From positions 355,247-419,246 of the forward strand of contig CP174359.1 in the NCBI GenBank assembly GCA_045401115.1: 64,000 nucleotides of DNA, written 5' to 3'. The position numbers and the translations under genes are program-made. This document shows, in pieces, positions 2,475 to 61,022 of the stretch. Within the stretch, counting starts at the first letter, position 1. Each line of letters opens with the position of its first letter. The notes under the pieces are model-generated. The model was not told the DNA's origin, did no database searches, and saw nothing but the letters and a program-made list of their open reading frames with translations. This DNA comes from Candidatus Phycocordibacter aenigmaticus. Lineage in GTDB: Bacteria > Patescibacteriota > Minisyncoccia > Phycocordibacterales > Phycocordibacteraceae.

Positions 2475-4031
2475 ATGTCTGTGAATCGCTATCTCATCGG
2501 TATTATTCTTATTGGGGTTATTATTGCCGCTTTTGTACTGCGTTTTGCAGCTTTTGACCACCCACTTTCTATGCACGCGGCAGAAGGATTTCGTGATTTA
2601 TTCGTTGCAAAACACGCGCTTATATATAATGAGTGGCCACTCAGTGGCCACCACAACGGCCTTTCTACTGTCGATAATAGTCCTCTGTATTATTATTTAA
2701 TTATTGGTTTCGCGCTGTTCACGCAATCTTTTTTTGGCGTGAGTGTGCTTTTTATCATATTTCAAACGGTTTTCGTAGCGCTCGTGTTCTTAATTACTCG
2801 GGCGTTATTCAATTCTATTGCTGGTCTTGTTGCTGCTTTTTTTCTTGCATTTTCACCACATTATATAATAACGGTTACGAGCGATTCCATTTGGCCTCCT
2901 TACTTTGCGGCAACATTTGTTGTTGTTTCGCTGTGGTTGTTATGGCGAGGAGATAAACAGACACATAGAGCACTTATTATAGCGAGTCCAATAGCTATGC
3001 TTATGGCAGTTGCGATACATCAAGCAACGCTGGCGCTTGCTATGCCGTATGCCGCCCTTGGATTATATGTGGCGTATAGAAATAGGTTTTTACTTAAACA
3101 CTACCTTATTGCCGGGGGTATGTTCCTGTTGTGTGCTGGTGTCTTGTTTTTACCTTCACTCCTTACACATCAAGGTGCATTGCAATGGGGGACTCGTATT
3201 TCAGATCACACCGTAATTCCAGTTTTTGATGCATTCCACTTAGCGTTCTCTCAAATACTGTATACGTTCGGATTATCCGGTATTACTTCTACTGCAGCGG
3301 CCGCAGTTATTATTTCTTTTATTACACTCAGTACGTGGTTTATCTATTCTTCTAAAGTACTGAGAAAAGAAAAGGTTTTTTATGGATTAGGAATACTGTT
3401 TCTTGTCACTCAAATATGCATTATTGTATTTTTTGACCCAGAAGGTTTTTTACGGCATATGGAACCGGCGCTTTGGATATTGACTGTGTTGCTCGGCGTT
3501 ATTATTACTGCACCTTTTATCAAACAAAACCATCTGATGATGGGTGTGTCTCTTATTGTTTGTTTGGTGACGCTACATGCCATGGTAACTGATGAGCGAA
3601 TGTTTAGGGTATATCCGAACATTGGAACCTTTGAATATCCTCACTATCAACTTATGGATCGCGCGGTTGATGCGTTAGTTGAAGATATACGTTACATAAA
3701 AGAAGAGCATCAGTATACTGATTATACGTTTTTCAATATCCACGCGCTCAGTAAGACGGGGAGTGTTGTTTCGCCACTCGTATTTTGGTTCCCATTAGAA
3801 GAGCGATTAGACGCTCGGCTTGAAAAATCACCGAATACAGTCACTGGTAATTTTTGGGCGAAACATGTTGATGATTATTTATTCTACGCTTGTTTTAAGC
3901 AAAAAAATAATTATAGTGACGAGCAATGTTTGAGTGATTTTTCAAAGCAACACACTCATCATAATATAGAAAAACAGGTGTTTTACGATGATGTATTGAG
4001 TATCTATCGGTCATCACGGCTGTCTCCGTAG
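2475..4031 (+). CDS. Polytopic GT-C-type membrane glycosyltransferase (ArnT/PMT-like topology) with C-terminal soluble domain
   Basis: About 10 or more TM helices then a ~120 aa hydrophilic tail; context beside GT2 and deacetylase; start at the Met at 2475. Confidence 0.5.
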   Translation: MSVNRYLIGIILIGVIIAAFVLRFAAFDHPLSMHAAEGFRDLFVAKHALIYNEWPLSGHHNGLSTVDNSPLYYYLIIGFALFTQSFFGVSVLFIIFQTVFVALVFLITRALFNSIAGLVAAFFLAFSPHYIITVTSDSIWPPYFAATFVVVSLWLLWRGDKQTHRALIIASPIAMLMAVAIHQATLALAMPYAALGLYVAYRNRFLLKHYLIAGGMFLLCAGVLFLPSLLTHQGALQWGTRISDHTVIPVFDAFHLAFSQILYTFGLSGITSTAAAAVIISFITLSTWFIYSSKVLRKEKVFYGLGILFLVTQICIIVFFDPEGFLRHMEPALWILTVLLGVIITAPFIKQNHLMMGVSLIVCLVTLHAMVTDERMFRVYPNIGTFEYPHYQLMDRAVDALVEDIRYIKEEHQYTDYTFFNIHALSKTGSVVSPLVFWFPLEERLDARLEKSPNTVTGNFWAKHVDDYLFYACFKQKNNYSDEQCLSDFSKQHTHHNIEKQVFYDDVLSIYRSSRLSP

Positions 4032-4094
4032 CGGAGTTGCGGATATGTATTGTACGATTTCCTATAAAGAATATAGTGTATTACCATAGGGGAT

Positions 4095-4415
4095 ATGCAG
4101 AACGTAGCTATACGACTGATTTTTATTGTACTTTTGGTAATCCCGATTGCTTCTAGTGAATTATTGCACGCAGTTATTCCGCATAGTCACTCGAGTAATA
4201 CAGTGATTGCTGAAGAAATGCATACGTTTTTTAGACATGAAGAAGGTGATGCGCTCGCTCTTTTTGATTTCATTCCTTTTTTCTTTTTTGTTCCACTGGT
4301 CGTATTTTTTGTGTCATGGCGATGGCGTGATCTCAGTGCGCGATTGATTAGAAGTGTTCATGCTGAACGTATTGCGCTACGGCGAGGTATCCTCCCTTAT
4401 AGATGTTTTGGTTGA
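4095..4415 (+). CDS. Hypothetical small membrane protein
   Basis: ORF with N-terminal hydrophobic segment; no recognisable domain. Confidence 0.25.
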   Translation: MQNVAIRLIFIVLLVIPIASSELLHAVIPHSHSSNTVIAEEMHTFFRHEEGDALALFDFIPFFFFVPLVVFFVSWRWRDLSARLIRSVHAERIALRRGILPYRCFG

Positions 4416-11468: not shown

Positions 11469-11498
11469 TTAAACGGCTCACTCCAGTGAGCCGTTTAA
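11469..11498. terminator. Bidirectional terminator hairpin (member of the AAACGGCTCAC palindromic family) between convergent typA and corA
   Basis: TTAAACGGCTCAC-TCCA-GTGAGCCGTTTAAA. Confidence 0.65.
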
Positions 11499-11514
11499 AA
11501 TAGAGCAAGTATTT

Positions 11515-24264: not shown

Positions 24265-24296
24265 AATAAACGGCTCACCATAGTGAGCCGTTTATT
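24265..24296. terminator. Terminator hairpin after groEL (AAACGGCTCAC palindromic family)
   Basis: AATAAACGGCTCAC-CATA-GTGAGCCGTTTATT followed by T-run. Confidence 0.65.
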
Positions 24297-24336
24297 TTTA
24301 TTCATTTTTTTAATAGATGTTTGATATACTACAGAC

Positions 24337-26550: not shown

Positions 26551-26736
26551 GCAGATGTCTAAGAAAATGCGAAAGCGTTTGATTAGAAAAAGCTGCGCAA
26601 GGAGAGAGAATTCGAACGGGAAGGGGGTCGGGGAAACGGGAGTTTCCCCGTGGCGGAATGAGGCGAAGCCGGACATAAAACCGAGGGGTTTTATGAGCGC
26701 AGCGAAGCGAGCAGTGAGATTCCTGTCTCCTCCGCA
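26551..26736 (+). mobile_element. tRNA-flanking structured element A, ending in a direct repeat of the tRNA-Ser 3' end (att-like)
   Basis: 18/19-nt copy of the tRNA 3' end at 26716-26736; GNRA hairpin 26563-26578; hairpins 26629-26650 and 26674-26695. Confidence 0.5.
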
Positions 26737-26963
26737 CTAAACAAAAGGATTGGCTTTGTGCTAGTGCTTTTGTTTTATATAAGGAGCGGCAGGATGAGAA
26801 GCAAGATGCTGGGAGCGTAAATTTTCTTGAGTGAGACGAGGTGGACAACTCTTGCTTGTGAACTCCTTTCTGACGGTGTATTTTAAAGACGGCTTGAACG
26901 GATTTCTAACCTTGTGCTACTCCTCGTGGATCGGTGTTGGTGGAGCAATAAAGCCGCTTTATT

Positions 26964-35466: not shown

Positions 35467-35514
35467 AGTCTAAAACTTGACAACTATATATAATATGTTA
35501 CGATATATCGCATT

Positions 35515-35832
35515 ATGCAACATATAGAACAACTACAAGCAATCGAACACGCACCGGCACGTTTGTGTAACTTAGGTATTTATGGGGAACTTAAGGTGCA
35601 TGATGTAGAAAAAGCGGTAGAAGCTGGTGAAATAAGCTTCCATGAAGGGGTTGAGTTAATTGAAAAATTTGGTGATCTTTCTAGAGTAGAGGCTTCACGC
35701 GTTCTTGAAGATGCTCTTGAGTCTCCGAATGATGCTATAGCTGAACTTCTTTCTGAAAGCGCACCACCTCTAAATGACGGCACTAATGTGTTTTACAGTG
35801 CCTGTGAAGCAATCTTCCAGTCTGGAATGTAG
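35515..35832 (+). CDS. Hypothetical acidic protein
   Basis: ORF with downstream terminator; no recognised domain. Confidence 0.4.
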   Translation: MQHIEQLQAIEHAPARLCNLGIYGELKVHDVEKAVEAGEISFHEGVELIEKFGDLSRVEASRVLEDALESPNDAIAELLSESAPPLNDGTNVFYSACEAIFQSGM

Positions 35833-35850
35833 TTGTCTATACTCTCTTCC

Positions 35851-35883
35851 AAACAACCCGCTTACATGGCGGGTTGTTTTTAT
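35851..35883 (+). terminator. Rho-independent terminator
   Basis: AAACAACCCGC-TTACATG-GCGGGTTGTTTTT. Confidence 0.7.
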
Positions 35884-35884
35884 T

Positions 35885-36151
35885 GATGTCCGCGCTAGAA
35901 CGCTTCGCTATCTCACTGCTCCCCAGCACCAGTTTGAGACAAAATGAAAATGGTTCGAAAATCTTTGTATGGAAATGAAACGTATCATACCTACTCACGT
36001 CCGTTCTCAAACTGGAGCTGGGTGTGCTCATAGAACCCTCGGTTCTATGTCGGCCAAAGGCCTAACTCCTCCACGGGAAAACAACGTGTTTTCCCGACCC
36101 TTTTCCAGTTCGATTCCTAGCAAGGGCACGGAATATGCTTCGCATTTTTAT
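35885..36151 (-). mobile_element. tRNA-Arg-flanking structured element E (related to element A), with an inverted copy of the tRNA 3' end
   Basis: 21-bp inverted repeat 36108-36129 / 36154-36175 involving the tRNA 3' end; hairpins 36029-36049 and 36074-36096 homologous to those of element A. Confidence 0.45.
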
Positions 36152-36227
36152 TGGTGCCCTTGCTAGGAATCGAACCTAGATCTAGAACTTAGGAGGTTCT
36201 TGTTCTATCCATTGAACTACAAGGGCA
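36152..36227 (-). tRNA. tRNA-Arg (anticodon CCT), CCA encoded
   Basis: Reverse complement gives TGCCCTT acceptor, anticodon loop CTCCTAA, GGTTCGATTCC T-arm, ...GGGCACCA. Confidence 0.85.
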
Positions 36228-36325
36228 TAGTGCTTCACGATAATGCGCGTCTTTTGCAAGCAAGAAGTGAATAGAAGTCTTGCTTATATTCACGCCGACG
36301 CGCCGCAAAAGTGGAAGCGCATTAT

Positions 36326-36598
36326 CTTACCACGCGCCCGCGTATGAAAAGACACGCAGTGCTTTCATACAAGAGCCAAAGGTTTGTGGTATTCCCACTG
36401 GCTCATGAAATACACGCAGTGATTTCATACAAGGGTGAGTAAAGGAGCTCGCTTACATTTTTGTTGAGGCGATGGAAAAAGTAAAGCGTGTTGCCTTACC
36501 ACGCGCCCGCGTATGAAAAGACACGCAGTGCTTTCATACAAGAGCCAAAGGTTTGTGGTATTCCCACTGGCTCATGAAATACACGCAGTGATTTCATA
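36326..36598. repeat. Two ~104-bp perfect direct repeats (36326-36429 and 36495-36598, period 169 bp), each holding two palindromes with a conserved ACACGCAGTG centre
   Basis: Direct comparison; TATGAAA...TTTCATA and CATGAAAT...ATTTCATA sub-palindromes. Confidence 0.8.
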
Positions 36599-36673
36599 TA
36601 AGGCATCGGACGTATCAAGCCGCACGGGGGTAAATACCCCCTAAACGGCTCTCTATGTTGTACACTGTTTTAT

Positions 36674-37012
36674 ATGAATCAGCAAAAGCAAAAAAAAGAA
36701 CCAGGACCTTCTTTAGATGAAGTATATAAGCTTGCTAAGGAAAATAATCGCATGCTCAAAGCCATGCGTCGGGATGCTTTCATTGGTGCTATCTTAAAAT
36801 TTGTGTTCTGGATTGCGATACTTTTTGTTATTCCTTATATTTTATATACGGTGTATCTGCAACCTCATTTAGTCAATCTTCAAAATACATATAATCAGTT
36901 TAATCAAAAAGTAGAAGCAATTGACGGCGCCTCACAAGAACTTCAGCAAGTGCGTGAAAGCCTCCCTGAAGGCTTTAACTCCTTTCTTGAGCAGTTTGGT
37001 ATTGGTGGCTAG
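36674..37012 (+). CDS. Hypothetical membrane protein
   Basis: Single TM, coiled-coil C-terminus. Confidence 0.4.
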   Translation: MNQQKQKKEPGPSLDEVYKLAKENNRMLKAMRRDAFIGAILKFVFWIAILFVIPYILYTVYLQPHLVNLQNTYNQFNQKVEAIDGASQELQQVRESLPEGFNSFLEQFGIGG

Positions 37013-37188
37013 AAAGATGGATTTTTGAGTGGGTTTTGATAGAATGGGGGACATTGCTAAGATTGAATGGTCTTGGTGATTGCCCTGCCGAGGGAAGATG
37101 TACTTCGTGTTATCTTGCCTCGGATGCAGTAAAGTTCCTCTCGAGGTAAAGCTTCTTACGGTCGCTTTGCCTCGGCGTCGAGCTGAGA

Positions 37189-37284
37189 GAATACGCTTCC
37201 TTTTTTCCGGCACGTCAACAAAAATGTAAGCGAGCTTCCATTTTTGTCTTGCTTGGAAAAATCGCGTATTCTCGTTAACCTCTT
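37189..37284 (+). promoter_or_regulatory. Conserved upstream stem-loop/promoter region of tRNA-Phe (homologous region lies upstream of tRNA-Arg)
   Basis: 10-bp inverted repeat GAGAATACGC...GCGTATTCTC; shared CTTGCTTG-AAAA-CGCG-ATT-TCGT block with 36229-36330 (tRNA-Arg). Confidence 0.45.
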
Positions 37285-37358
37285 GCCGAGGTAGCTCAGG
37301 TGGTTAGAGCACTGGTCTGAAGAACCAGGTGTCGGCGGTTCGAGTCCGCCCCTCGGCA
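37285..37358 (+). tRNA. tRNA-Phe (anticodon GAA)
   Basis: GCCGAGGTAGCTCAGGTGGTTAGAGC..., anticodon loop CTGAAGA, GGTTCGAGTCCGCC T-arm. Confidence 0.9.
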
Positions 37359-37561
37359 CAAAAACAATGAAGCCCGATACGAGAGTATCGGGCGATTTGT
37401 TTTGTAGCTACGAGGGCGGACTCGAAAGACGGAGCCGTGGGTCCCCATTGTGCTGAGTTTCAGGCACAATGGGGCGGCGAGTCCGGGCAGGAGGTTGTTA
37501 TGAGTTTTTCTATCGAGAGATAGGTAAAAACGAATTACGAACCTGACGCCGAGTCCGCCCC
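37359..37561 (+). mobile_element. tRNA-Phe-flanking structured element B, ending in a 12-nt repeat of the tRNA T-loop/T-stem (CGAGTCCGCCCC)
   Basis: GNRA hairpin 37373-37392; hairpin 37443-37476; shared 16-mer CGAGTCCGGGCAGGAG 37478-37493; junction GACGCCGAGTCC 37545-37556. Confidence 0.45.
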
Positions 37562-37589
37562 ATAACTTAGACTGGTTTATACTATACAT

Positions 37590-38096
37590 ATGGAGAAAAA
37601 AGTTTCCGTGAGTTTGGTAGACCAGCCAAACTATTCCTATACGCTTACTGAGCCGGTAGGGAAGAATTTTGACCCTGAATTTACGCCACACCTTACCCCC
37701 AAAGAGATGCTTGAGTTGGGCGTATTTTGTGGTCAATATATGCGCGACGGTGCCAAGGAATTTCCTGACTCATGGTTTACAAAAGCAAAGTTTACTAAAG
37801 GAGACAAAGCGGATTGCTCACTCAACTATTTTAAGGTGAATGCAAGCCAACCGCTTAGCGCATGGCAGGAAAAAGGATGGATACATCCAGACGATCCACG
37901 TGGGTGGTTTCAGTGGTACTGTCGGTATTACATGGGAAGGCGTCATGAGGATGATGAACGACAAATAAAGCGATGGAAGGCGTTTAGACGCCATGCAGCA
38001 CAAGTGCGAAACAACTGCGAGAGAGGAGATATGGGTTGTCGGTCCAAACAGCGCCAGGCCCTTCTGCACTGGGCATATGATAGTCGAAAATTATAA
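37590..38096 (+). CDS. Conserved hypothetical protein (Trp/Cys-rich; GWFQWYCRYYMGRR motif)
   Basis: 168-aa ORF with terminator; family not identified with confidence. Confidence 0.45.
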   Translation: MEKKVSVSLVDQPNYSYTLTEPVGKNFDPEFTPHLTPKEMLELGVFCGQYMRDGAKEFPDSWFTKAKFTKGDKADCSLNYFKVNASQPLSAWQEKGWIHPDDPRGWFQWYCRYYMGRRHEDDERQIKRWKAFRRHAAQVRNNCERGDMGCRSKQRQALLHWAYDSRKL

Positions 38097-41595: not shown

Positions 41596-41629
41596 ATATA
41601 AACGGCTCACCCAGGTGAGCCGTTTATAT
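41596..41629. repeat. AAACGGCTCAC palindromic hairpin (family copy 3) in a divergent intergenic region
   Basis: ATATAAACGGCTCAC-CCAG-GTGAGCCGTTTATAT. Confidence 0.7.
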
Positions 41630-41738
41630 CTATGGCATGTCCGTCCTTTAATGAGGGAAGCGACGAATAAAGTTCTATCACTGCCTAAGCTATTGCAATT
41701 ATAGCTATTATGTTGCATAATAAATATAGATAAAATAT

Positions 41739-44010: not shown

Positions 44011-44213
44011 TGTTGTGGGCGATACAGGACTCGGCGTCAGGTTCCTAAGCTCATTCATCGCTCCGCTCTTCATTCACTAAGGACCTCCTGCCCGGCCTCG
44101 CCGACAAGCACTCGCTCTCGCTCGTCTTGTATACCGGCTCCGGCTTTCTCGTCCTGTGTCGCTGCTACAAACCTAAGTTGCATCATGCATGCGCATACTG
44201 CTCTAAGGTTTTG
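44011..44213 (-). mobile_element. tRNA-Val-flanking structured element D, ending (44011-44030) in a 20/21-nt direct repeat of the tRNA 3' end
   Basis: TGTGGGCGATACAGGACTCG present at 44011-44030 and 44212-44231; GACGCCGAGTCC junction and CCGGGCAGGAG motif on the minus strand. Confidence 0.5.
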
Positions 44214-49887: not shown

Positions 49888-50083
49888 CAAATGTCTAAGA
49901 AGACGCGAGAGCGTCTGATTAGCAACAATTGCGAGAAGGAGATGAGGCGAGAAAGACGGAGGCCGCGAAGCCGTGACGATAGTACACGTGGCCGAGTCCG
50001 GGCAGGAGCCACTTAGTATTTTGTGAGCAAAGCGAGACAAAATAGTTAGTGAGTTGACGCCGAGTCCCATCTCCTCCGCAAAT
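49888..50083 (+). mobile_element. tRNA-Ser(CGA)-flanking structured element C, ending in a 23-nt direct repeat of the tRNA 3' end
   Basis: CGAGTCCCATCTCCTCCGCAAAT at 49871-49893 and 50061-50083; GNRA hairpin 49901-49916; 16-mer CGAGTCCGGGCAGGAG 49993-50008. Confidence 0.5.
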
Positions 50084-50632: not shown

Positions 50633-50710
50633 GTTTTTCTTGGTTATCTACTATAATTTCATAGTACCATTCTCGTTGATATTGTGTAGCGTCACACCTA
50701 TAAACGGCTC

Positions 50711-50740
50711 AATGCATTGAGCCGTTTATTACACACCCTT
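50711..50740. repeat. AAACGGCTCA palindromic hairpin (family copy 4) in a divergent intergenic region
   Basis: ATAAACGGCTCA-ATGCAT-TGAGCCGTTTAT. Confidence 0.7.
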
Positions 50741-60980: not shown

Positions 60981-61022
60981 CACACCCCCTGGTCAACACC
61001 CGGGTGTTGACCAGGGGGTGTG
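60981..61022. repeat. 42-bp perfect palindrome in the divergent intergenic region
   Basis: CACACCCCCTGGTCAACACCC|GGGTGTTGACCAGGGGGTGTG. Confidence 0.85.

Follow-up and report, generated by a model that had tools for sequence, protein, structure and literature searches.

Two perfect repeats of 104 nt lie between a tRNA gene and a small membrane-protein gene in Candidatus Phycocordibacter aenigmaticus, and the question they raise is what kind of element stands there twice, letter for letter. Our best guess, from the 64,000-nt stretch analysed here (the window; contig CP174359.1, positions 355247 to 419246), is that the block is non-coding, specific to this lineage and amplified locally, a module set in the back-to-back promoter region of tRNA-Arg and the membrane-protein gene. 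The two units within it may be small structured RNA genes on the + strand, divergent from tRNA-Arg, a tentative reading to which we give a probability of about 0.3, and for which we infer function, transcription, strand and RNA ends from the DNA sequence.

The repeat itself is exact. Its copies, called cores here, occupy 36326-36429 and 36495-36598, agree at 104 of 104 nt and follow each other with a start-to-start period of 169 nt, just as an earlier interpretation made without database searches (the sequence-only reading) had described. The bases flanking the perfect repeat differ (T/C at 36325/36494, C/T at 36430/36599), and similarity extends beyond it at lower identity, from 36279-36434 to 36448-36603 (87% over 156 nt). 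Apart from one 42-bp palindrome (60981-61022), the cores hold the only repeated 31-mers of the window, which excludes a chance origin, and no further core copies were found elsewhere in the 64 kb. Tandem Repeats Finder made no call at 36326-36598, which reflects the threshold of the tool (two copies, diverged spacers) and does not contradict the repeat. Nor is the duplication an assembly artefact: a Logan unitig from an independent short-read build (SRR31281916) matches window positions 36569-37486 exactly and starts 30 nt before the first base that tells copy 2 from copy 1, the point at which a k=31 graph breaks if the reads contain both junctions. The sequence at either repeat junction is unique.

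Outside the cores, the two units part quickly. In repeat register, the 47-nt leaders agree at 28 of 47 positions (60%) and the 16-nt trailers at 6 of 16. The sequence-only reading had proposed either recent duplication or strong constraint; leaders that are just 60% identical exclude a simple recent 169-bp duplication, and homogenisation or selection is possible. Leaders at 60% beside cores at 100% imply that the cores were gene-converted, were selected, or were placed behind two pre-existing arms.

Each core is predicted to form four hairpins. Two of them, H1 and H3, are the palindromes with a common centre noticed in each copy from the sequence alone, and both are indeed capped by the 10-mer ACACGCAGTG, which comprises a bulged A, a 3-bp CAC/GTG stem and a GCA triloop. 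H1, TATGAAAAG-ACACGCAGTG-CTTTCATA (36343-36369 and 36512-36538), has 27 nt and one bulged base; H3, CATGAAAT-ACACGCAGTG-ATTTCATA (36404-36429 and 36573-36598), has 26 nt, and its outermost C.A is unpaired on the + strand and a U.G pair on the - strand. The sequence-only reading did not include the other two, namely H2 (GAGCCA..GTGG-tattc-CCAC-TGGCTC; 36373-36404 and 36542-36573), between H1 and H3, and H0 (ACGC-gccc-GCGT; 36332-36343 and 36501-36512), a small hairpin at the 5' side of the core. In all, the H1 and H3 copies give the block four ATGAAA-N12/13-TTTCAT palindromes, with a half-site spacing of 13 nt in H1 and 12 nt in H3.

Every one of these hairpins folds better than shuffled sequence (z -2.1 to -3.6, as RNA or DNA and on either strand). 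H1 and H3 are paralogues, 83% identical with 5-6 positions different, and their stems differ by a compensatory G-C versus T-A exchange and one bulge, from which hairpin formation in H1 and H3 appears to be maintained; this single compensatory event, within one paralogue pair, is the covariation available for the core. Operator-type inverted repeats or small hairpin RNAs had been suggested for the palindromes: the H1/H3 change suggests hairpin folding, neither option is proven, and a folded single strand fits the change somewhat better than a rigid double-stranded operator. For the whole core, the best fold is one long imperfect hairpin of ~100 nt, with H1 paired to H3 and H2 at its tip (copy 1: -40.5 kcal/mol on the + strand, -42.4 on the - strand with its extra U.G pairs). 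An alternative with three local hairpins and a closing helix is ~9 kcal/mol less stable (-31.6 on + and -34.2 on -). Assigning a strand from folding energies, for the cores or for the promoter palindromes described below, was rejected since the differences are too small. An outer helix can extend core 1, pairing GCCCGCG (36336-36342) with CAAGGGT (36430-36436), the latter just beyond the perfect repeat; it is degenerate in copy 2. Rfam returned just tRNAs, both for the whole window at gathering scores and for 35500-37600 at E<=10, and within 36227-36673 nothing matched at E<=10 bar one chance match of 13.5 bits.

The setting of the block is conserved and the block is not. It fills the 447-nt gap between the divergent tRNA-Arg(CCU) gene (36152-36226, - strand; CCA encoded; found by ARAGORN and, at 71.8 bits, by the Rfam tRNA model) and a conserved 112-aa membrane-protein gene (36674-37012, + strand), so that the repeats do lie upstream of tRNA-Arg, and the ~450 nt described earlier as free of ORFs hold just ORFs of <=43 aa without homologues. 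Further on stands tRNA-Phe(GAA) (37285-37359, + strand; ARAGORN and Rfam). The comparison covered seven syntenic loci of relatives (L122, L124 and L126-L130), where the small protein is 46-61% identical and its gene lies between tRNA-Arg and tRNA-Phe in all relatives examined. Relatives keep the order MurJ, LepA, glutaredoxin, tRNA-Arg, small ORF, tRNA-Phe, Hsp20, PrsW and class-I aminoacyl-tRNA synthetase (a label taken from Pfam tRNA-synt_1 in the relatives' orthologue); these protein genes, with small ORFs, are also the neighbours within ~8 kb here. Where the arrangement is divergent as in the window, the gap between tRNA-Arg and the ORF measures 37-100 nt, and in none of the seven loci does it contain ACACGCAGTG, core-like or leader-like sequence. 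By blastn, the sole part of the intergenic block kept in relatives is TGTTGTACACTG (36656-36667, + strand), just before the ATG of the small ORF and probably its promoter.

Wider searches extended this picture. A strict hairpin pattern run against JGI metagenomes returned four unrelated single hairpins and nothing more, three patterns run against IMG/VR returned nothing related, and BLAST of the core against phages and plasmids gave no match; nothing relevant was found in the published literature on the motif, on this bacterium (UBA2163) or on small RNAs of the CPR. Within the collections searched (relatives, metagenomes, viral, phage and plasmid sequences, and Rfam), the core is a lineage-specific orphan. 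As an orphan hairpin module, it is mildly informative about how streamlined Patescibacteria gain or keep non-coding DNA beside tRNA genes.

What links the cores to their neighbours is the sequence in front of them. Each core is preceded by an arm of ~48 nt homologous to those upstream of tRNA-Arg and tRNA-Phe, and five such arms (A, B1, B2, B3 and C) occur within 1.1 kb. The sequence-only reading had included neither the arms before the cores nor the long fold of the core nor its absence from relatives. Arm A lies directly upstream of tRNA-Arg and arm C directly upstream of tRNA-Phe, and B3 faces away from tRNA-Phe. From the inverted repeat and the five-arm alignment, A and B1 make up an 88-bp palindrome (36239-36326) of two back-to-back promoter-like arms; its 88-bp homologue upstream of tRNA-Phe (37187-37273) joins B3 (- strand) to C (+ strand), and B2 (36446-36494, + strand) is a solo promoter-like arm before core 2 with no palindrome partner. 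Every arm has a -10-like hexamer at its outer end. In A it is CATTAT, 13 nt from the mature 5' end of tRNA-Arg; in B1 (36277-36325, directed toward core 1), CATTAT, 10 nt before GCCCGCG; in C, TATTCT, 12 nt before tRNA-Phe; in B3, TATTCT, 11 nt before a GCCGAGG that lies beyond the tRNA-Phe palindrome; and in B2 a degenerate TGTTGC at the -10 position, 10 nt before GCCCGCG of core 2. From about the last base of this hexamer, the cores are identical up to the final base of the H3 stem.

The arms have their own history. When the A/B1 and B3/C palindromes are aligned, 8 of 32 pairs are compensatory (both sides changed) and none is broken, which indicates that the two arms within each palindrome evolve in concert. 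Both strands of the promoter palindromes fold equally well, and the palindromes may reflect a hairpin or simply the concerted evolution of inverted promoter copies. B2 is 80% identical to B3, with a perfect match of 22 nt, and 60% identical to B1; since B2 is nearer B3 than B1, the history was not one recent 169-bp duplication. By these alignments, the cores have evidently been homogenised or constrained while the arms swapped sequence with other local copies. The layout recalls bidirectional promoter palindromes, given the 88-bp A/B1 and C/B3 pairs with -10-like hexamers at both outer ends and concerted arms; here the outward-facing B arms are putative promoters, and B2 stands alone.

A second link is a likeness between the cores and tRNA ends. 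In core 1, the outer helix (GCCCGCG/CAAGGGT) is similar to the tRNA-Arg acceptor (GCCCTTG/CAAGGGC): 5 of the 7 acceptor pairs can form there, and copy 2 has fewer. On the - strand, core 1 shows at its right boundary the sequence ACCCTTGTA, which agrees in direct orientation with nt 1-9 of tRNA-Arg, GCCCTTGTA, at 8 of 9 positions. The 5' and 3' ends of the core match the ends of tRNA-Arg at 7/9 and 11/16, which is chance level window-wide (~3 chance pairs per 64 kb), and the local alignment of core and tRNA-Arg is no better than shuffles; derivation of the core from tRNA-Arg by alignment was rejected as not significant. The likeness nevertheless gains some weight from its fixed position, from a hairpin in the closest relative that tracks that genome's own acceptor, and from counterparts beside tRNA-Phe. 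At the same position and in the same orientation, the closest relative, L129, carries TATATT-N10-ACCCTTCA-13 nt-TGAGGGC, a short hairpin that copies its own, different tRNA-Arg acceptor (GCCCTCA/TGAGGGC). On the tRNA-Phe side of the window, the positional counterpart of the cores is a pair of hairpins (37086-37176; 37088-37123 and 37142-37174) whose stems are the tRNA-Phe acceptor GCCGAGG/CCTCGGC. Such tRNA-Phe acceptor-copy hairpins, which include positions 8-9 (9/9), occur twice in the window and once each in L128 and L129. The cores may thus be an expanded, duplicated acceptor-copy hairpin, a lead rather than a result.

Under the favoured reading, each unit would consist of a diverged, promoter-bearing arm of ~48 nt and a ~100-nt hairpin cluster, H0-H1-H2-H3, whose outer helix would copy acceptor-stem sequence of tRNA-Arg. 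Transcription would start a few bases past the -10-like hexamer, with the RNA beginning near GCCCGCG, and the RNA would take one of two shapes, a four-way junction or a long imperfect hairpin with H2 at its tip. While the promoter arms drift, the cores would stay identical through gene conversion or purifying selection. The probable forerunner of the unit is a short acceptor-mimic hairpin such as L129 still has at this position. A conceivable function, for example, would be that of a tRNA-end mimic interacting with tRNA-processing enzymes.

This reading is favoured because arms with -10-like hexamers precede the cores (at 10 nt) much as they precede the tRNAs (at 12-13 nt), and because the limits of identity, at the -10 hexamer and at the end of H3, between diverged arms and trailers, are those expected of duplicated RNA genes with diverging promoters. 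It also draws on a terminator-like hairpin with a T-run directly 3' of core 1 (36433-36464, + strand, from the consensus scan), which overlaps the start of B2 and is weak (8 pairs, 3 of them G-C), on the compensatory H1/H3 difference and the performance of the hairpins against shuffles, and on the acceptor-copy hairpin at the same place in L129 together with the tRNA-Phe theme in the window, L128 and L129. Confidence is held down by the 19-nt spacing between -35 and -10 in the B arms, the poor -10 of B2, a consensus scan that found no sigma-70 promoter on the + strand at B1 or B2, and the lack of a terminator past core 2; folding slightly favours the - strand, and no relative supplies covariation.

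Tandem duplicated small-RNA genes with promoters of their own are known, for example PrrF1/PrrF2, OmrA/OmrB and AbcR1/AbcR2. The block resembles these pairs in having adjacent, near-identical, hairpin-rich units of ~100 nt, each with its own promoter-like arm and with diverged flanks. It differs from them in that copy 2 has no clear Rho-independent terminator and no seed-like single-stranded region was identified, and in that the core is without conservation in relatives or an Rfam family.

Almost as likely as the small-RNA reading is that the block is neutral or selfish DNA: a REP-, ERIC- or MITE-like palindrome, or duplication debris, that expanded in a tRNA-flanking hotspot, has no RNA or regulatory role and owes the identity of its copies to recent gene conversion. 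The absence of the block from all relatives, with their gap of 37-100 nt, fits such an origin, as do the tendency of tRNA flanks in this clade to gather small inserts and tRNA fragments and the 22-nt perfect B2/B3 match, which shows ongoing exchange among local repeats. The minimum-energy fold of the core, an imperfect hairpin of ~100 nt, is like those of ERIC, Correia and RPE elements, and more broadly the block shares with REP/BIME, ERIC, Correia, Rickettsia palindromic elements and MITEs its intergenic, lineage-specific character and its ~26-nt palindromes that form a ~100-nt hairpin. H1 (27 nt) and H3 (26 nt) are imperfect palindromes in the 20-40 nt size range of REP/BIME units. Against this stand the copy number and arrangement (just two copies, adjoining, with none dispersed elsewhere in the 64-kb window), the lack of a target-site duplication, and limits of identity that match structural limits rather than the random ends of conversion tracts. 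Moreover, a streamlined genome of 0.72 Mb would be expected to purge useless DNA, and the hairpin-preserving H1/H3 substitution suggests constraint. H1 and H3 also start with (C/G)(G/T)(T/C)ATGAAA and have no GTAG or GTGG head, unlike the Pasteurellaceae hairpins with the same cap, which have GTAG; and each core unit, unlike REP, ERIC, Correia or MITE elements, includes a promoter-like arm common to tRNA genes. The marks of a MITE in particular are lacking: the outer sequences (CATTAT..CAAGG versus TGTTGC..TAAGG) show no target-site duplication, the copies are tandem rather than dispersed, and the apparent terminal inverted repeats pair just because each arm is itself a palindrome.

The cap speaks to the same alternative, as CAC-GCA-GTG recurs in REP-like families of many phyla, with an identical cap sequence in Comamonadaceae, in Pasteurellaceae (among them GTAG-headed inverted pairs) and in others. 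A GTDB scan with one genome per species for two ACACGCAGTG 40-60 nt apart found more than 119 loci (a lower bound), with no Patescibacteria among the matches listed. Most of the matches listed are REP-like hairpins with variable stems around the same cap, and coding tandem repeats also occur; the listed families, which are unrelated to one another, include two Comamonadaceae types and GTAG-headed inverted pairs in Rodentibacter and Glaesserella, with tandem units in Lachnospiraceae, Treponema, Syntrophomonadaceae and others. Same-cap hairpins of other phyla sit intergenically, as REP elements do, and Rfam returned nothing on 18 of the ACACGCAGTG-pair loci. A G-N-A triloop closed by C-G forms an unusually stable DNA mini-hairpin; the ViennaRNA parameter sets give no special bonus to the GCA triloop. 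That unrelated phyla have this cap in common is probably convergence on a stable G-N-A triloop and not homology.

Less probable is a role at the level of DNA, in which the repeats would be regulator sites, or cruciform supercoil sinks, that tune the promoters of tRNA-Arg and the small ORF. The block does sit exactly between these two divergent promoters, and the identical 10-bp centres are themselves palindromic (CAC..GTG), with a stable triloop that would favour extrusion. On the - strand, a -35-like TTCATA/TTTTCA in the H1 arm lies 16-18 nt from a GATAAT hexamer, and binding there could control an upstream tRNA-Arg promoter. Yet the half-site spacing differs by 1 bp between H1 and H3 and the change between them is compensatory, not symmetric; no other gene in the window has the motif upstream of it, and relatives regulate the same genes without the block. 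Pfam, PHROGs and NCBIfam recognised no DNA-binding domain in the neighbouring ORFs and hence no candidate regulator among them.

It is similarly unlikely that the cores act on the - strand as a structured 5' leader, or as an upstream promoter region, of pre-tRNA-Arg. That strand gives slightly stabler folds and has two positions as U.G rather than C.A, the energy difference between strands being small. A promoter-like TTCATA-16-GATAAT at 36348-36321 would suit this orientation, as would the 8/9 direct copy of GCCCTTGTA in ACCCTTGTA, which has parallels at tRNA-Phe (9/9) and at tRNA-Arg of L129. However, core 2 has no convincing - strand promoter upstream of it, the tRNA is already served by a good proximal promoter at 13 nt, and relatives need no such leader.

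More doubtful still is the idea that the cores are expressed, tRNA-shaped 'shadow' RNAs of tRNA-Arg that belong to a clade-wide tRNA-flanking system. Such a system would combine acceptor-copy hairpins upstream of tRNA genes with 'type 1' elements downstream (see below), the closing helices of both copying the tRNA's own ends. Like tRNA minihelices and tRNA-like structures, the core has an acceptor-like outer helix, three internal hairpins in a cloverleaf-like arrangement and a promoter geometry of the tRNA type. In contrast to them, it is undetected by tRNA models (ARAGORN and Rfam RF00005 find just six genuine tRNAs in the window), its cloverleaf is ~9 kcal/mol below the extended hairpin in stability, and no T-loop, D-loop motif or CCA was found in it. 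If the 'shadow' idea held, the mimics could titrate or guide enzymes that process or target tRNAs; alternatively, they might be recombination sites, in folded form, for miniature elements whose integration targets are tRNA genes. Should the cores be part of a tRNA-end-copying system at all, they would fall into a so far undescribed class in the candidate phyla radiation, either of tRNA-linked RNAs or of miniature integrative elements.

An assembly artefact, a CRISPR mini-array or a small protein gene is very improbable: mis-assembly can yield perfect repeats, the block offers four similar units of ~30 nt and a 43-aa ORF spans each core, but the junctions are unique and the break of the independent unitig falls exactly at the k-1 boundary, each 'spacer' has an identical partner and the units are not alike, and a search of 5.8 billion proteins gave no homologue for the translated 43-aa ORF, which is a called gene nowhere. 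The sequence-only reading had likewise set CRISPR aside, for want of more than two units; it stays aside with four hairpin units, since H1 and H3 differ, spacings alternate between 61 and 108 nt, the intervening sequences are identical in pairs, and no cas genes occur among the neighbours within ~8 kb. Two further candidates were rejected: type III antitoxin-like repeats, as the downstream ORF has no toxin-like domain (Pfam, PHROGs and NCBIfam), and a riboswitch or leader for that ORF, which keeps its own conserved promoter motif before the ATG in all relatives.

The repeat block is also a pointer to its surroundings, as the 1.5-kb neighbourhood and other tRNA genes carry structured copies of adjacent tRNA ends. 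Structured elements of ~150-200 nt come after five of the window's six tRNA genes. One kind, 'type 1', is present in three copies, after tRNA-Phe, tRNA-Val and tRNA-Ser-CGA, and was not found in Rfam or IMG/VR. These tRNA-flanking elements are likelier than the 104-bp repeats to repay further work. Aligned, the three type 1 copies are predicted to form a three-way junction of 60 pairs, of which 29 are compensatory; in the closing helix, the 3' strand directly copies the 3' end of the preceding tRNA. The corresponding three-copy covariance model matches downstream of tRNA-Phe in L128 (104 bits) and, in L126 and L127, downstream of tRNA-Gly (56 bits), and in these genomes, too, the element ends in a copy of the 3' end of that tRNA.

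Type 1 elements lie 3' of tRNA-Phe (37400-37562, plus strand), tRNA-Val (44015-44172, minus strand) and tRNA-Ser(CGA) (49927-50079, plus strand) in the window, and each is predicted to fold into a three-way junction with the conserved joiners GAAAG(A/C)CGGAG, CGAG(T/G)CCGGGCAGGAG and TGACGCCGAG. Among these three copies, 29 of the 60 predicted pairs show compensatory changes. In the closing helix, the 3' strand repeats the 3' end of the preceding tRNA in direct orientation, and an internal segment is antisense to this sequence. A covariance model built from the three copies (R1) matched further elements in related genomes, following tRNA-Phe at 3494-3629 of locus L128 and tRNA-Gly at 1279-1386 of L126/L127; the element is absent from Rfam, and a search of IMG/VR did not recover it. 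A tRNA-linked RNA is one possible identity; another is a miniature integrative element whose folded att site this would be. In two relatives, the intact tRNA-Gly gene is followed by incomplete duplicates of its own 3' end: L128 has two fragments (3941-4184, minus strand), and L130 has a more extensive copy, a 3' half (2415-2610), which is closer to the relatives' version than is the resident gene of L130. Such a pattern is the classic footprint of repeated integration at tRNA genes.

A second element, type 2, occurs 3' of tRNA-Ser(GGA) (26553-26750, plus strand) and 3' of tRNA-Arg (35945-36151, minus strand), with the layout GGAAGGGGGTCGGGGAAA-hairpin-CCCGTGG..ACATAAAACCGAGGGGTTTTATGAGC and compensatory changes at 6 of 29 predicted pairs; it had no match in the relatives' loci, which are short. 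At tRNA-Ser(GGA), the element closes with a repeat of that tRNA's 3' end. At tRNA-Arg, it opens with 22 nt perfectly antisense to the 3' end of tRNA-Arg (36108-36129), a stretch that could pair with tRNA-Arg itself. The tRNA-Arg(CCU) gene (36152-36226) is the only one of the six tRNA genes in the window to encode its 3' CCA, which is missing from those for tRNA-Phe, tRNA-Val, tRNA-Glu and both tRNA-Ser.

Immediately upstream of tRNA-Arg and tRNA-Phe lie homologous 88-bp palindromes (36239-36326 and 37187-37273, respectively), each carrying a -10-like hexamer at both outer ends. Of their 32 pairs, eight are altered on both sides and none is broken, and the palindromes represent either a conserved long hairpin or concertedly evolving copies of back-to-back promoters. 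Other hairpins have stems that reproduce the neighbouring tRNA's acceptor stem together with its positions 8-9. Such acceptor copies of tRNA-Phe occur in three genomes (37088-37123 and 37142-37174 in the window, about 3305-3331 in L128 and about 829-855 in L129, the closest relative), and a tRNA-Arg version occurs in L129 (315-343). One U.G pair is kept in the tRNA-sense orientation, which hints at a role at the RNA level.

Elsewhere in the window, four hairpins of the form TAAACGGCTCA(C)-loop-(G)TGAGCCGTTTA (11469-11504, 24266-24301, 41598-41633 and 50700-50735), with a half copy at 36644, share conserved 11-12-bp stems around variable loops of 4-6 nt. All four lie between genes, bordered by A and T runs, and probably form one family of bidirectional terminators; their repeated use of a single stem sequence recalls uptake-sequence pairs. 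A perfect 42-bp palindrome, CACACCCCCTGGTCAACACCC|GGGTGTTGACCAGGGGGTGTG (60981-61022), lies between divergent ORFs and is a candidate operator or bidirectional -35 pair.

The cap ACACGCAGTG, a CAC/GTG stem with a GCA triloop, recurs beyond this lineage. Among the matches listed from a one-genome-per-species scan for paired caps, the capped hairpins belong to unrelated intergenic repeat families in many phyla (for example L031 2580-2675, L053 1665-1812, L017 1620-1698 and L023 3192-3269), often in tandem sets of 2-4 units spaced 60-80 nt apart. Near-identical capped units are common to one Treponema MAG and one Syntrophomonadaceae MAG.
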